Positions 10,588 through 64,000 of a stretch of 64,000 nt of DNA are shown piece by piece; within the stretch, counting starts at the first letter, position 1, and each line of letters starts with the position of its first letter. The notes under the pieces were generated by a model that was not told where the DNA came from, searched no databases, and saw only the letters and a list, made by a program, of their open reading frames with translations. Made by a program: the position numbers and the translations under genes. This DNA comes from Oscillospiraceae bacterium (GTDB taxonomy: Bacteria > Bacillota > Clostridia > Oscillospirales > Oscillospiraceae). The stretch is taken from contig SVMC01000001.1 in the NCBI GenBank assembly GCA_015067585.1, forward strand, positions 33,876 through 97,875. The letters run 5' to 3'.

Positions 10588-10765
10588 GATTTATTCTCCT
10601 TTATTGCAATAGTTGTCTACATCTTACCATGTTCCGCGATTGGGTGCAATGCCCAATGTTTGACAAAAAATTCGGTATTTTTGCCCAATTCTTTGCCGTT
10701 TCGGGCAGGGGATATTTTGTGGGGCAGGTGCATAGGATTTGGTACGGAATAATCAACAGACCTCA

Positions 10766-10816
10766 CCGTAGGGACAGCCGTCCCCGGCTGTCCGGTAGGG
10801 GTTACGAATTCGCCGG
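10766..10816 (+). repeat. Composite GC-rich intergenic repeat (ccgtagggacagccgtccccggctgtccgg ... cgaattcgccgg)
   Basis: Near-identical to the reverse complement of 63576..63630. Contains the hairpin ggacagccg/cggctgtcc. Confidence 0.85.
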
Positions 10817-10875
10817 AACCTGCATAAAATCGCGGCATTTTCTGCCGGGCGTGCAATGCAAAGGGGGGTAATACT

Positions 10876-26458: not shown

Positions 26459-26557
26459 GCGTAAAATTGCGCAGAAAATGGTTCGATTATATCGAGATTA
26501 CCGGCGAATTCGAAGCCTTTTTCGGGCGGCGGATGATATCCGGCTGCCTTTGCGAAG

Positions 26558-26604
26558 AAACAAAAAACGGCCCTGCGTCTTGAGTTTCAAGACGCAGAGC
26601 CGTT
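26558..26604 (-). terminator. Intrinsic terminator after xpt
   Basis: 18-bp stem (aacggccctgcgtcttga / tcaagacgcagagccgtt, one mismatch) plus a U-tract on the minus strand. Confidence 0.85.
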
Positions 26605-27557: not shown

Positions 27558-27561
27558 CAAT

Positions 27562-27727
27562 GATATCCGTTCCTGGCGGAACGGGTGATATATCTTCGAT
27601 ATGATATCCACCTGCGGTGGATGATATATGCCTTCGGCATATGGAGGAACGGATATTATATCATATTTGCAACGCAAATATATCATACGGCAAAGCCGTA
27701 TATCATATCGCGCAAGCGATATATCAT
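27562..27727. repeat. Array of 7 unique short hairpins separated by (G)ATATCAT-type constant motifs
   Basis: Hairpins lie at 27567-84, 27590-602, 27606-22, 27626-42, 27663-81, 27685-701 and 27705-22. ATATCAT occurs at 27658, 27680, 27700 and 27721. Confidence 0.85.
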
Positions 27728-27877
27728 TGAGTAATGCAACAAATTATGTTACCTCACGATGTTCATCCCCACTACTTTCTCCCAAAAATTTTTTCCAATT
27801 TCCCTCCCTTTGTTCATGACTAATTCATAATTATCCTGTATTGTGGCATTATATTTAAAACAAAGGAGGCGTAACCT

Positions 27878-59890: not shown

Positions 59891-59952
59891 AAAAAACAGA
59901 ACCCCATAGTGCAACCCAAAAACCTGACATTTTGGGAAACTGCACTATGGGG
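59891..59952 (-). terminator. Intrinsic terminator after the proline-rich ORF
   Basis: ccccatagtgca / tgcactatgggg outer stem with an inner cccaaaa/ttttggg pairing and a U-tract (uucuguuuuuu) on the minus strand. Confidence 0.8.
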
Positions 59953-60025
59953 CATACATTACTGACGGTCCGGGGGTGGTCTGCGCTTGTGCGGAAGGTA
60001 TCTCAGGACTTGCGCACCACCCCCG

Positions 60026-60592
60026 TCAGCGTATCCGGGCAAGCTGACGGGAACGGGCCTGGGACTCCCGGGCAAGCTGCCGGGCAGGCTGTGTGCAGGC
60101 TTCAGGAAGCCGCTCCAGTGCGCGGCGAAGGGCTGCTTCCCGTTCCTGCTGTACCTGCAGGGAGATGACTGCAGGGGCAGTGTATGTTCCTGCAATGCCG
60201 CAGCGGCTTCGCAGTGTACTTTCCCCCCGGCGGCATTGGGCTGCCATCTGACGGAAGCCCGGAGAGCGGAAACGCATGGCCAATGCGTCATATCCGGCCG
60301 CAAGCTCCAGAAGCTGTGTCGCCGCAGAAGGTTGGGCTGGGGGCGGCGGAGGCGGCGGAGGTGGCGTCCATCCGCCCTGTCCCGGGGGATTGGGTCTGCC
60401 GCCCTGGCCCGGCGGCTGCCGGGTAGGCGGTGCGGGAGGCTTGTTGTCATCGGGATTCCGTGGCGGTGTGGGAGGTACCCCGCCCCGTCCGGCGGGAGGC
60501 GGCGCGGGCCATGCGCCGGGTGCAAAGACATCCCGCCCCGGCATGACCCTGGCCCATACCGAGCGCACCGCCCGGCGGTCATATGGATTCAT
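60026..60592 (-). CDS. Proline-rich hypothetical protein (188 aa, contains a run of 9 consecutive Pro)
   Basis: Of three overlapping frames, it alone has a strong RBS (AAGGAGGG, 6 nt before the ATG at 60592), and it is followed by a terminator. Confidence 0.55.
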   Translation of the reverse strand: MNPYDRRAVRSVWARVMPGRDVFAPGAWPAPPPAGRGGVPPTPPRNPDDNKPPAPPTRQPPGQGGRPNPPGQGGWTPPPPPPPPPAQPSAATQLLELAAGYDALAMRFRSPGFRQMAAQCRRGESTLRSRCGIAGTYTAPAVISLQVQQEREAALRRALERLPEACTQPARQLARESQARSRQLARIR

Positions 60593-60857
60593 AGCATTCC
60601 CTCCTTATCATGCTACCATCCTATGCCGGCATTCTGCTGTTGGTGCGGCCTTTTCCGTGATCCGCAGGCTGTCTTCGGTCAGATGCTCAAAAATTGCGGT
60701 CTGCACAGTTTTTTTGAGCATTTCCGAAAAAAATCATACCAATTCCATTAAGTATGTGTTATAATAGCATCATCACAAAGGAAATTATGCCCACAGGGCG
60801 AATTTCCCTGTATTTGCCCGCCTTTTTGGGCGGAGCACATATATCAACTGCAAAGGA

Positions 60858-61718
60858 ATGGATCATATGAAGAACATCACCAACCAAGAGCTGGCCCTTT
60901 GGGCGGCACGCGGCAGGCTTCTGGCGGTGGACGCAGTTCATGAAGCAGCCAGCGGCCATCCCGGCGGCTCCCTTTCGTGCATGGATGCACTCATCACCCT
61001 CTACTTCGCGGAAATGAACATCGACCCCGCCGACCCCAAGAAGGCAGACCGTGACCGTCTGGTCATGTCCAAGGGTCACTGCGCTCCCGCCCTGTACTCC
61101 GCTCTGGCACTGCGCGGCTACTTCCCCGTGGAAGACATGAAGCTCCTCCGCTCCATCAAGGCTCACTACTCCGGCCATCCCGACATGGTCAATGTTCCCG
61201 GTGTTGATATGTCCACCGGTTCTCTGTCCCAGGGTATGTCCGCAGCCGTTGGTATGGCTCTGGCGCTCAAGCATCAGGGCACTGACTGCCGCGTATACAC
61301 CATCTGCGGTGACGGCGAAATGGCAGAAGGCCAGATCTGGGAAGCTTCCATGGCAGCAGCCAAGTTCAAGCTGGACAACCTGTGCGTATTTGTAGACGTC
61401 AACGGTCTGCAGATCGACGGCGCCACCAAGGACGTTATGCCCTCCGAACCCCTGGATGCCAAGTTCGCAGCATTCAACTGGAATGTCATCAAGGTGGACG
61501 GCCATAACTTCGAAGAGATCCGCGCAGCACTGGCTCAGGCCCGTGAATGCAAGGGTATGCCCACTGTCATCCTGATGAAGACCGTCAAGGGCAAGGGCGT
61601 CAGCTTCATGGAAAACAATGCCGGCTGGCACGGCAAGGCTCCCAACGATGAGCAGCTTGCTGCCGCAAAGGCTGAGCTGGAACCCATCATTGCAGCACTT
61701 GAGAAGGAGGTAGGCTAA
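60858..61718 (+). CDS. Transketolase, N-terminal (TPP-binding) subunit
   Basis: GHPGGSLS, GHC.PALY and GDGE..EGQ.WEA motifs. 286 aa, the split form. Confidence 0.93.
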   Translation: MDHMKNITNQELALWAARGRLLAVDAVHEAASGHPGGSLSCMDALITLYFAEMNIDPADPKKADRDRLVMSKGHCAPALYSALALRGYFPVEDMKLLRSIKAHYSGHPDMVNVPGVDMSTGSLSQGMSAAVGMALALKHQGTDCRVYTICGDGEMAEGQIWEASMAAAKFKLDNLCVFVDVNGLQIDGATKDVMPSEPLDAKFAAFNWNVIKVDGHNFEEIRAALAQARECKGMPTVILMKTVKGKGVSFMENNAGWHGKAPNDEQLAAAKAELEPIIAALEKEVG

Positions 61719-61719
61719 T

Positions 61720-62667
61720 ATGGCAGGCAAGATCGCAACCAGAAGCGCCTACGGCAAGGCTCTCGCAGAGCTGGGCGCAAAGTATCCCAATGTGGTCGTG
61801 CTGGACTCCGACCTGTCCAACGCCACCATGAGTAAGTTCTTCGCAGCGGAATATCCCGAGCGTTTCTTCAACGTGGGTATCGCTGAGTGCAACATGGTCG
61901 GCGTCGCCGCCGGTATGGCAGCCGCCGGTCTCAAGCCCTTCACCAATACCTTCGCCATGTTCGCTGCCGGCCGTGCTTACGAGCAGGTCCGCAACTCCGT
62001 GGCATATCCCGGTCTGGGCGTGGTGTGCGTCGGCACCCACGGCGGCGTTTCCGTCGGTGAAGACGGCGCCACCCATCAGTGCATCGAGGATCTGGCCCTG
62101 ATGCGTGCCATCCCCGGCATGACCGTCATCCACCCCTGCGACGGCCACGAGACCGCCCTGGCAGTGGAAGCTCTGATCAACTATGACGGCCCCGCTTACC
62201 TGCGTCTGTCCCGTCCCAACACCGAAGTTTTCACCGATGAGATGGAAGGCTACAGCTTCGAGATCGGCAAGGGCGTCACCATGCGTGACGGCGCCGATGT
62301 CACTCTGGTCGCCACCGGCCTCATGGTGGGCATCGCAATGGACGCTGCCAAGATGCTGGAAGCAGAAGGCATTTCTGCCCGCGTCATCAACATCCATACC
62401 ATCAAGCCTCTGGACTGCGAACTGATCTGCAAGGCAGCCAAGGAAACCGGCGCTATCGTGACCTGCGAAGAGCACAACATCGTCGGCGGCCTGGGCGGCG
62501 CAGTTTCTGAGTGCGTGTCCGGCTGCTGCCCCGTTCCCGTTGTCCGCGTTGGTGTAGAAGACCAGTTCGGCCGCAGCGGCAAGGCAGACGAGTGCATGGC
62601 ATACTTCGGCCTCACTGCAGAGAACATCTGCGCCAAGGCAAAGGCAGCCATCGCCCTGAAAAAGTAA
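61720..62667 (+). CDS. Transketolase, C-terminal (pyrimidine-binding) subunit
   Basis: R.AYG.AL..LG, GIAE.NMVG.AAG.A and G.THQ..ED.A.MR. Confidence 0.93.
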   Translation: MAGKIATRSAYGKALAELGAKYPNVVVLDSDLSNATMSKFFAAEYPERFFNVGIAECNMVGVAAGMAAAGLKPFTNTFAMFAAGRAYEQVRNSVAYPGLGVVCVGTHGGVSVGEDGATHQCIEDLALMRAIPGMTVIHPCDGHETALAVEALINYDGPAYLRLSRPNTEVFTDEMEGYSFEIGKGVTMRDGADVTLVATGLMVGIAMDAAKMLEAEGISARVINIHTIKPLDCELICKAAKETGAIVTCEEHNIVGGLGGAVSECVSGCCPVPVVRVGVEDQFGRSGKADECMAYFGLTAENICAKAKAAIALKK

Positions 62668-62718: not shown

Positions 62719-63417
62719 ATGAAGCAAGCACTGCTTGAGGGTTTGAACCCCCTTGGCATCTCCCTCACGGAAGCACAGACCGACAATTTCTGCCGCTACG
62801 GCACTCTCTTAGTGGAGAAAAACGCGGTGATGAACCTCACCGCCATCACAGAGCCGAAGGATGTGGCCCTGCTCCACTTTGCCGACTGCCTTGCCCTGAC
62901 AAAGATCCGGGATTTTAAGGGAAAACGGGTCATCGATGTGGGCTGCGGCGCAGGCTTTCCCGGCGTTCCCCTGAAAATTGGGGAGCCTTCCATGGAGCTG
63001 ACCCTGCTGGATGCCACCGCCAAGCGGATGAACTGGCTGGAGCAGGAGCTGCTGCCGGAGCTGGGCTTGTCTGCAAAGTGTCTGACGGGCCGTGCGGAGG
63101 AGCTGATCGAAGGCCGCCGGGAGGGGTATGACATTGCCGTTTCCCGTGCCGTGGCAAGGCTCAATATGCTCTGCGAGCTGTGCCTGCCCTTCGTCAAGGT
63201 GGGGGGCTTCTTCCTCGCCATGAAGGGCGCCGCCGCCTCGGATGAGGCCGAGGAAGCCAAGGCTGCCATCCGTCTTTTAGGCGGCAAGCTGCGGGAAATC
63301 GCGGAATACCCCATTGGGGATGCGATGCACAGGGTGGTAGTGATCGAAAAGGTCCGTCCCACCCCGCCCAAATATCCCCGCCGCTTTGCCAAGATCAAGC
63401 AGCAGCCTCTTGTCTGA
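62719..63417 (+). CDS. rsmG: 16S rRNA (guanine527-N7)-methyltransferase
   Basis: N.TAI......(L/W).H..D(S/C)L and DVG.GAGFPG.PLKI. AAGGAG lies 5 nt before the ATG at 62719. Confidence 0.9.
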   Translation: MKQALLEGLNPLGISLTEAQTDNFCRYGTLLVEKNAVMNLTAITEPKDVALLHFADCLALTKIRDFKGKRVIDVGCGAGFPGVPLKIGEPSMELTLLDATAKRMNWLEQELLPELGLSAKCLTGRAEELIEGRREGYDIAVSRAVARLNMLCELCLPFVKVGGFFLAMKGAAASDEAEEAKAAIRLLGGKLREIAEYPIGDAMHRVVVIEKVRPTPPKYPRRFAKIKQQPLV

Positions 63418-63418
63418 C

Positions 63419-63543
63419 AGGGCAAGCTGCGCTTGCCCTCTCGATTTCGCTCCCTGACAGGAGCGAAATCATATCGAATTGCACAGCAATATATCGAATT
63501 CGCGAAGCGAATATATCGAGCTTCCCAAAGGGAAGCATATCGA
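63419..63543. repeat. Second hairpin array: 5 unique hairpins alternating with the constant ATATCGA motif
   Basis: Hairpins lie at 63419-39, 63443-70, 63478-90, 63498-512 and 63520-36. ATATCGA occurs at 63471, 63491, 63513 and 63537. Confidence 0.85.
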
Positions 63544-63575
63544 CAATAGCTGAAACGGCTTTGTTTTTATCGAAA

Positions 63576-63630
63576 CTACCGGCGAATTCGCCGCCTTTAT
63601 GCGGACAGCCGAGGACGGCTGTCCCTACGG
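63576..63630 (-). repeat. Composite GC-rich repeat, inverted copy of 10766..10816
   Basis: The reverse complement ccgtagggacagccgtcctcggctgtccg...ggcgaattcgccggtag matches the 10766 copy over both end blocks. Confidence 0.85.
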
Positions 63631-63666
63631 TGGAAGTTGGAGGTCTTTGCAGGACCGATATTTTAT

Positions 63667-63735
63667 CGTAGGGACAGGCCTCCGGACTGTCCGGCAGGAA
63701 AAGTTCCTTTTTCATTAAAACTACCGGCGAATTCG
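63667..63735 (+). repeat. Third, rearranged copy of the composite repeat (cgtagggacaggcctccggactgtccgg ... ctaccggcgaattcg)
   Basis: It shares the GTAGGGACAG..CTGTCCGG hairpin block and the ACCGGCGAATTCG block. The latter also occurs at 26499-26512. Confidence 0.75.
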
Positions 63736-63736
63736 T

Positions 63737-63765
63737 GTCAATCGGGGAACCGTCCCCTGATTGAC
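63737..63765. repeat. REP-like palindromic unit (gtcaatcggggaaccgtcccctgattgac)
   Basis: Lies 33 nt upstream of the rpiB ATG. Confidence 0.9.
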
Positions 63766-63797: not shown

Positions 63798-64000
63798 ATG
63801 AAGATTTCTCTTGCCTGTGACCATGGCGCGCTGACCCTGAAGCAGAAGGTGCGTCAGCATCTGGAAGCCCAGGGCCATACCGTGGTGGACTTCGGCACCA
63901 ACACCCCCGACAGCTGCGACTATGCCGACTTCGGCATCCCCGCTGCAAAGGCCGTGGCCTCCGGCGAATGCGACAGAGGCATCGTGCTCTGCACCACCGG
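63798..64000 (+). CDS. rpiB: Ribose-5-phosphate isomerase B, N-terminal part (the 3' end lies outside the window)
   Basis: MKISLACDHGALTLKQKV...L...GH.V.DFG and C..G.G. GGAGG RBS. Confidence 0.9.
   Translation, partial: MKISLACDHGALTLKQKVRQHLEAQGHTVVDFGTNTPDSCDYADFGIPAAKAVASGECDRGIVLCTT

Follow-up and report, generated by a model that had tools for sequence, protein, structure and literature searches.

In the 64-kb stretch of DNA analysed here (64,000 nucleotides from an Oscillospiraceae bacterium; hereafter the window), the rsmG gene (62719-63417; TIGR00138) is followed by a cluster of hairpins, which ends 255 nt before the start of rpiB at 63798. The first hairpin, hp0, has a 9-bp stem (AGGGCAAGC-tgc-GCTTGCCCT; 63419-63439, + strand) and lies two bases past the rsmG stop codon. 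It is succeeded by the degenerate heptamer TCGATtT (63441-63447, + strand) and by an 11-bp hairpin, GATTTCGCTCC-ctgaca-GGAGCGAAATC (63443-63470, + strand), in which 63443-63453 pairs with 63460-63470. The 11-bp hairpin abuts an array of four ATATCGA heptamers starting on the + strand at 63471, 63491, 63513 and 63537. The heptamers are separated by three flush hairpins of the same strand: ATTGC-aca-GCAAT (hpE, 63478-63490), ATTCGC-gaa-GCGAAT (hpF, 63498-63512, containing GCGAAGC exactly) and GCTTCCC-aaa-GGGAAGC (hpG, 63520-63536). Behind the last heptamer, the segment 63544-63570 (+ strand) consists of CAAT and a weak terminator-like hairpin with a T-run, AGCT-gaaac-GGCT (63548-63560). The first-pass annotation had placed the four heptamers at exactly these positions, and had described the three hairpins between them as well as 9-bp and 11-bp hairpins in front of them; all of these features are present, and so is a lone TATATCGAG that it had noticed beside ACCGGCGAATTCG (26488-26512).

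ATATCGA occurs eight times on the two strands of the window, compared with 4.9 expected occurrences. From the window rate, a Poisson estimate puts the probability of four same-strand copies within 73 nt at about 3e-8. Tandem Repeats Finder (TRF) called the array at 63462-63543 with a period of 20-23. The region folds markedly better than its shuffled versions, both as RNA (z = -7.7) and as DNA (z = -8.4 and -9.4 for the two strands).

A two-armed element of gut Clostridia

We scanned 185,579 species genomes (one per species) with the pattern ATATCGA-N11-19-ATATCGA-N11-19-ATATCGA, and found at least 120 loci. Approximately 85 loci among the matches listed were gut Clostridia MAGs with flush hairpins, and among the matches listed the ATATCGA array type was almost confined to such MAGs. 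The approximately 85 loci belong to Oscillospiraceae, Acutalibacteraceae, Faecousia and Christensenellales and come from ruminant, horse and human samples; nearly all of their inter-linker segments are flush hairpins with at least four Watson-Crick pairs. Matches in Bacillus, Vibrio, Bacteroidota, cyanobacteria and others were rejected as microsatellites or coding repeats. A check for phage association identified true hairpin arrays in 4 of 119 pattern matches on viral contigs. In what follows, loci carry three-digit numbers (e.g. L003), and linkers within an element a single digit (L1 to L8).

The TCGATAT-type hairpin-ladder element was defined here from about 40 loci. It is a dyad-symmetric structure of about 200-250 nt, composed of hp0, linkers L1-L4 (TCGATAT) with hairpins hpA-hpD, a centre, and linkers L5-L8 (ATATCGA) with hairpins hpE-hpG; L8 is usually followed by CAAA. 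The canonical order is four minus-type linkers, then four plus-type linkers, and most full elements have a hairpin just 5′ of L1, like hp0. Two indicators of polarity, the tandem G.A in hpE and the ATATC-ATATCGA at the centre, agreed in all 12 elements that have both. Where arrays are adjacent, their linkers are complementary in 26 of 29 cases. A permuted order was seen in L071, L084, L088 and L095, and hybrid loci, which combine arrays with non-complementary linkers, in L016, L032, L064 and L121. When a single linker deviates, there is no clear sign of compensation in the opposite arm: about five such variants are G.U-compatible and about five are mismatches. Copies inside one genome or MAG are moderately similar, not near-identical. 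We aligned 29 right arms, in which MAFFT misaligns the variable hairpins, and a covariance model based on them would score mainly the identical linkers. The window segment from 63471 to 63543 (+ strand), with linkers L5-L8, has the same architecture as these 29 arms, and its CAAT takes the place of the family consensus CAAA. The hairpins, described in the first-pass annotation as unique, turned out to be position-specific homologues that are conserved across species with compensatory changes.

The heptamer exists in several flavours, each with four plus four linkers and complementary arms: GTGATAT/ATATCAC (flanks of Weinberg's seed sequences, L028), TGATAT/ATATCA (the window at 27.6 kb), GCTAAAT/ATTTAGC (L054, L094) and GCGATAT/ATATCGC (a second copy in L054).

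The two arms are connected by a long-range helix. The sequence formed by GATAT and the 5′ arm of hpA is complementary to the centre plus ATATC, 85-94 nt downstream, and the resulting 12-bp helix, which joins the first linker to the centre, is 96% paired in 21 distinct sequences. Double compensatory changes were found in 10 of its 12 pairs, and none of 500 shuffles was as good. The sequences of this covariation test included the window helix at 63443-63470. A compensatory change is exemplified by GAGAT/ATCTC replacing GATAT/ATATC, with L8 unchanged. The local stem of hpA also covaries, hence hpA and the long-range helix are alternative pairings. Pairing of neighbouring linkers through UCGA:UCGA, as proposed by RNAalifold, was rejected as a general feature because other flavours do not have the palindromic core.

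A complete sister element is located at 27558-27729 (+ strand), directly after tRNA-Gln and the tRNA-Gln terminator. It consists of four TGATAT linkers with hairpins, a centre, and four ATATCA linkers with hairpins; its centre, GGAACGGATATT, is complementary to GATATCCGTTCC. The Rfam model Gut-1 (RF01706) matches this element twice, in inverted orientation: at 27558-27632 (+ strand, 64.1 bits) and at 27653-27729 (- strand, 52.6 bits). Gut-1 was described as a three-hairpin motif of human-gut metagenomes only, with no function assigned (Weinberg et al. 2010, PMC2864571). It was rated 'certainly RNA' by the same authors (PMC2864571), and is classified as an sRNA in Rfam. We found no follow-up literature on Gut-1 or RF01706 after the 2010 paper.

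The array at 63.4 kb shares the Gut-1 layout of three flush hairpins separated and flanked by four constant linkers of 6-7 nt, as well as the occurrence in gut Clostridia and metagenomes. Its match to the model (63466-63545, minus strand) scored 22.1 bits, with an E-value of 0.088 when 700 nt were searched, below the gathering threshold of 50 bits, because the linker on the minus strand is UCGAUAU rather than UGA(A/U)AU (Gut-1 consensus (G)UGAAAU or UGAUAU). Of 18 loci carrying a full TCGATAT element, not one was detected by the model at the gathering threshold. The same two-armed element is found in the sequences flanking Weinberg's own Gut-1 seeds. Since there are several linker flavours, all of them two-armed, the Rfam model is a model of one arm in the (G)TGA(A/T)AT flavour; the second arm, the long-range helix and the 5′ hairpin lie outside it. 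Thus the Gut-1 arm is already known, whereas the TCGATAT flavour and the extended two-armed architecture are new. Gut-1 has been in Rfam since 2010 as an orphan RNA of the human gut only. What is catalogued there is a single arm of a two-armed element with linker flavours missed by the model, and the element is abundant in MAGs of Oscillospiraceae, Acutalibacteraceae and Christensenellales from animal as well as human guts.

The arrays at 27.6 kb and 63.4 kb were thus correctly suspected, in the first-pass annotation, of belonging to one family rather than arising by chance, and this family is common in related gut Clostridia; the shared generating mechanism that was proposed along with this was not demonstrated. 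Nor are the two arrays self-standing units: that at 27.6 kb is a complete two-armed element, and that at 63.4 kb a truncated one.

Truncation and turnover in the rsmG-rpiB spacer

Judged by its sequence, the copy after rsmG is truncated: it appears to be a right arm preceded by the long-range helix, which has collapsed to the 11-bp hairpin. Read on the + strand, it comprises hp0, TCGATtT-CGCTCC-ctgaca-GGAGCG-AAATC, L5-L8 with three hairpins, and CAAT. The 11-bp hairpin, which abuts L5, corresponds to the family helix [L1 tail + X]:[X′′ + centre]. Instead of a left arm with four TCGATAT linkers and hpA-hpD there is a single degenerate linker, TCGATTT, in the place of L1 (consensus TCGATAT), and the units of the left arm that belong between X′ and X′′ are absent. 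The homologous place is TCGATAT in L003, which keeps two left linkers, and TTGATAT in L135. The anatomy suggests that the left arm was lost as if by deletion between a pair of 7-nt direct repeats, of which X′ forms the 3′ arm of hpA and X′′ the centre. Such a deletion would leave the helix as a hairpin closed by a 6-nt loop.

The rsmG-rpiB spacer was compared among strains with at least 93% identical RsmG. Its length lay between 151 and 487 nt, and the array was present in some strains and absent from others. Two strains (L126 and L127; 380 nt) do not differ from the window anywhere in the spacer. Two others (L128, L129) were identical to the window until the first ATATCGA, where both contigs end. 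The L003 contig covers two hairpins of the left arm, the centre and the beginning of the right arm, and stops inside the array. L135 (303 nt) has only hp0 and a TTGATAT-CGCTCCC remnant, L001 and L002 (151 nt) have hp0 and heptamer tandem repeats (GATGAAA...), L130-132 (487 nt) contain heptamer repeats and GTAG/CTAC-type palindromes and no array, and L136 (222 nt) lacks both hp0 and the array. Hairpin hp0 is thus retained in the array-less sister strains L001 and L135. The spacer differs so greatly among the strains that we consider it a hotspot of repeat turnover in which the array is not conserved. The first-pass annotation had called for this comparison of close strains, leaving it open whether the stems would be conserved or hypervariable. 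It was the units that differed, in presence, absence and number; the stems were conserved, as in ATTGC-aca-GCAAT of the window and ATTGC-gaa-GCAAT of L003, and not hypervariable. In L004, where RsmG is 77% identical, the gap between rsmG and rpiB is 18 nt, which suggests that the two genes form an operon.

Metagenome and MAG contigs often end at or inside arrays also at many other loci (for example L056, L082, L089, L090, L093, L106, L108 and L113). L128 and L129, from two independent samples, both stop precisely where the window-type array has its first ATATCGA. These breaks suggest that multi-copy repeats, or variation within the population, disrupt the assembly.

Folded DNA and RNA as possible forms of the element

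The stems of the family are built almost entirely from Watson-Crick pairs. In the module orientation we counted 1425 Watson-Crick, 13 G.T and 7 A.C pairs, which is a weak strand bias; in the sense orientation the non-Watson-Crick pairs split 10 to 10, with no bias for G.U over A.C. The loop preferences are mirrored between the arms, the favoured loops being on opposite strands. Among 193 distinct hairpins, read on the strand with the ATATCGA linker, triloops were GNA in 48 cases and TNC in none, tetraloops were GNNA in 51 cases and TNNC in one, GNRA and GNYA were equally frequent (25 and 26), and the closing pair was C-G in 92 of 99. The motif cGN(N)Ag was present in 138 of 281 segments, compared with 4 on the other strand. 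The loops in the window (cACAg, cGAAg and cAAAg) fit the cGN(N)Ag-or-purine type with a C-G closing pair. The loops of the family conform to cGNAg/cGNNAg, the rule for extraordinarily stable DNA mini-hairpins; a Tm of 76.5 °C was reported for d(GCGNAGC)/d(GCGNNAGC), as opposed to 39 °C for r(GCGAAAGC) (PMC13037366). They look tuned for DNA hairpins rather than for RNA.

The elements are biased to gene 3′ ends. By crude ORF calls they lie between convergent and divergent gene pairs in a ratio of 10 to 1, frequently 20-60 nt past a stop codon. The upstream gene is co-oriented with the element in 23 cases versus 10, and five copies adjacent to a tRNA are all in the orientation of the tRNA. Clustering of the flanking ORFs of the approximately 85 loci by blastp revealed essentially no conserved neighbours. 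The orientation of single arrays correlated neither with local GC skew (27 versus 21) nor with the gene-strand majority (23 versus 22). No RAYT or transposase was seen linked to the elements, and a Pfam search of ten small ORFs of the 64-kb window found no HUH/Y1 transposase. In one subfamily, including its tandem copies, TTGnnn-17-TATAAT stands immediately in front of the 5′ hairpin and L8 is followed by a small terminator; the TATAAT, 7 nt before hp0, is conserved in L017, L037, L054, L082 and L089. Several elements directly precede an RBS and ATG. When 32 full elements were scanned in both orientations, promoters were found in 5 sense versus 7 antisense cases and terminators in 9 versus 10. 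The scan thus showed no sense bias, so the promoter evidence comes from a single subfamily.

Among known repeats the closest resemblance is to REP/BIME/REPIN sequences (PMC2817692), which are likewise dispersed extragenic or intercistronic hairpin repeats at gene 3′ ends, have inverted composite halves and vary between strains. The array, being intercistronic between rsmG and rpiB, has their typical location, and ladder arrays share spacers with GTAG/CTAC-type palindromes. However, a REP has a conserved palindrome and variable flanks, whereas the ladder has a constant 7-nt linker and differing palindromes. The array does not have the conserved REP palindrome with its GTAG-type 5′ motif, and the GTAG/CTAC palindromes near it belong to another family. 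Ladder units within an arm are in direct orientation, whereas REP units alternate; REPINs are RAYT-associated and, when active, have near-identical copies; ladder copies are not near-identical, and no RAYT was seen linked to them. Comparison with MITEs, which have terminal inverted repeats, a target-site duplication and many near-identical copies, showed inverted arms, no edge duplication, and per-MAG copies of the moderate similarity described above. Natural DNA mini-hairpins (G4/ssiA primase sites, N4 vRNAP promoters; PMC13037366) obey the same cGNAg/cGNNAg rule, with any N, but occur singly in single-strand origins or promoters of phages and plasmids, in contrast to the chromosomal ladder with 3-4 hairpins and two inverted arms. 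A CRISPR, too, alternates constant and variable segments regularly, but its repeats measure about 23 nt or more, its spacers are unique and not palindromic, and it comes with cas genes or a leader. In the array only 7 nt are constant, and 12-20-nt palindromes take the variable positions, in 3-4 units; the variable parts of the ladder are conserved between species, and no cas genes were seen. CRISPR, integron attC, type III antitoxin arrays and iterons were rejected on anatomy. A Rho-independent terminator, defined by a GC-rich hairpin with a direct U-run, was also rejected: no array hairpin is followed directly by a U-run, and the weak site at 63548-63560 is the only one of this kind.

The Watson-Crick stems, the mirrored loops, the placement and the turnover make folded DNA the best single reading, with RNA as a strong rival. 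We therefore interpret the array after rsmG, with a probability of about 0.5, as a REP/BIME-like folded-DNA repeat co-transcribed with rsmG, that is, a truncated, strain-variable, dispersed intergenic repeat. The functional form would be single-stranded or extruded folded DNA, and the element would be a structural or selfish repeat at gene ends rather than a classical trans-acting sRNA. Because it is situated within what looks like an rsmG-rpiB operon in relatives, the array is probably co-transcribed. Downstream of rsmG, the transcript would gain five stable hairpins and, behind them, the weak terminator-like site. By analogy with intercistronic REPs, these hairpins could protect the rsmG part of the transcript against 3′ exonucleases or dampen read-through into rpiB. 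Since sister strains lack the array, it is unlikely to be essential, and the copy after rsmG is a decayed, probably non-essential member of the family. Several observations count against the folded-DNA interpretation. The promoter-bearing subfamily and the elements adjacent to an RBS point to an RNA role in at least some cases. The copies are not near-identical, unlike those of active REPINs and MITEs, and have no linked RAYT. The absence of an orientation bias, the apparently uncompensated single-linker variants and the few loci with non-complementary linkers likewise speak against it.

A structured non-coding RNA of the Gut-1 class as first proposed, transcribed on the + strand, is a serious possibility, though we hold it to be somewhat short of probable. 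At this locus it would be an rsmG 3′ UTR or an intercistronic RNA, and elsewhere it would have its own promoter; it could fold as a ladder of four-way junctions or as a bistable switch between hpA and the long helix, and could act as a scaffold, decoy, cis-regulator or 3′-end stabiliser. Its class assignment by Rfam and Weinberg, the TATAAT boxes before hp0 in five loci with small terminators after L8, the co-oriented upstream genes and the orientation of the tRNA-adjacent copies argue for such an RNA. In addition, the ladder, in which L1:L8 to L4:L5 pair and the side hairpins give rise to four-way junctions, is the minimum-free-energy fold of a full element in RNAfold (z = -3.9), and the covariation of both the long-range helix and local hpA is switch-like. 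On the other hand, G.U makes up 0.9% of the pairs and A.C is about as frequent, any single transcript would have UNC/UNNC loops in half of its hairpins, GNYA is as common as GNRA, and triloops dominate. The lack of sense bias in the scan of 32 elements and the varying presence of the array among near-identical strains at the rsmG locus are also at odds with an RNA.

Two further explanations would make the array a by-product of other processes. The identical 7-nt direct repeats flanking each hairpin, the near-perfect palindromes, the TRF period of 20-23 nt and the pure heptamer tandem repeats in the same spacer of sister strains could be accounted for by scars from repeated insertion and excision of a small transposon, with the heptamer as a 7-bp target-site duplication and the palindromes as terminal-inverted-repeat footprints, or by drifted tandem duplications of a linker-plus-hairpin unit. 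We regard this as very improbable: across many species the 4+4 architecture, the position-specific homology, the covarying helix and the strand-specific loop rule are conserved, and neither random scars nor drift would give such conservation. A chance cluster, or ordinary terminator hairpins of rsmG, would agree with the location directly past the stop codon and with the one weak terminator-like site after the array, but this explanation has next to no credibility in view of the clustering far beyond chance, the array hairpins without U-runs, and the same architecture at approximately 85 loci in other genomes among the matches listed.

For the family as a whole we tentatively suggest, with less conviction than the interpretation of the rsmG copy as folded DNA, that Gut-1-type elements are not RNAs and make up a previously unrecognised class of dyad-symmetric DNA 'mini-hairpin ladders'. 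In such a ladder, extraordinarily stable cGN(N)Ag DNA hairpins on opposite strands would form two arms zipped together by an element-specific 7-nt 'address' linker, and the element would function in, or spread through, single-stranded DNA with the help of an enzyme or process of gut Clostridia. The mirrored loop rule and the lack of G.U pairs make the choice between RNA and folded DNA directly testable. If the element acts as DNA, it represents a novel type of repeat in bacterial genomes that turns the REP layout around, with constant flanks and variable palindromes, and that would bear on genome stability, MAG assembly breaks and mRNA 3′-end biology in dominant gut anaerobes. If it acts as RNA, the element is a large RNA with multiple junctions and, apparently, a conformational switch.

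Neighbouring repeats and other features

A second repeat family, a REP-like palindrome of the form (T)ATATCGA-AACTACCGGCGAATTCG ... CCTTT-TGCGGACAGCC-gagga-GGCTGTCC-CTAC, is present in the window at 10700-10850 (-), 26488-26560 (+), 63565-63632 (+) and 63713-63737 (+), and also in L130-L136. It ends in CTAC, the reverse complement of GTAG, and its block often opens with ATATCGA, the same heptamer as the array linker. The sequence CGGCGAATTCG occurs nine times in the window with at most one mismatch (1.7 expected). The number and orientation of the second-family repeats differ among the sister strains.

Hairpin-free tandem repeats of heptamers (GATGAAA ... GTTGACA) were observed in the rsmG-rpiB spacer of sister strains, at 2955-3010 in L001 and just past the rsmG stop codon in L130-L134. 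Runs of the CATTCCG/CATTCCA and TTTCAAC type were found beside hairpin arrays in Christensenellales MAGs and in one Weinberg Gut-1 seed, and the loci with pure heptamer tandem repeats include L018, L064, L121, L023 and L087. The pure heptamer repeats may be related to the array linkers.

Two loci contain unusual arrangements of the ladder element. L054 (2080-2560, - strand) has a tandem pair of elements, both with TATAAT and an hp0 hairpin in front; the second copy, whose linkers have drifted to GCGATAT/ATATCGC, has tandem G.A in all three right-arm hairpins, and the GCTAAAT/ATTTAGC-flavour element lies about 1 kb from the pair. In the full element of L010 (4767-5051), about 150 nt of inserted GC-rich sequence separate L4 from the centre.

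Elsewhere in the window, two RNAs scored above the Rfam threshold: an ssnA RNA (RF03031; 58301-58348, - strand, 61 bits) and a 6A RNA (RF02925; 32606-32656, + strand, 58 bits). The region 59930-60770 has a GC content of about 0.60 and long overlapping ORFs in several frames. The product of one minus-strand ORF is rich in proline and glycine and includes PPPPPPPPP; this is probably a gene for a low-complexity protein. Upstream of rsmG, at 60858-62667, the N-terminal and C-terminal halves of transketolase are encoded by separate, adjacent genes; the same split is found in all sister loci and looks ordinary.
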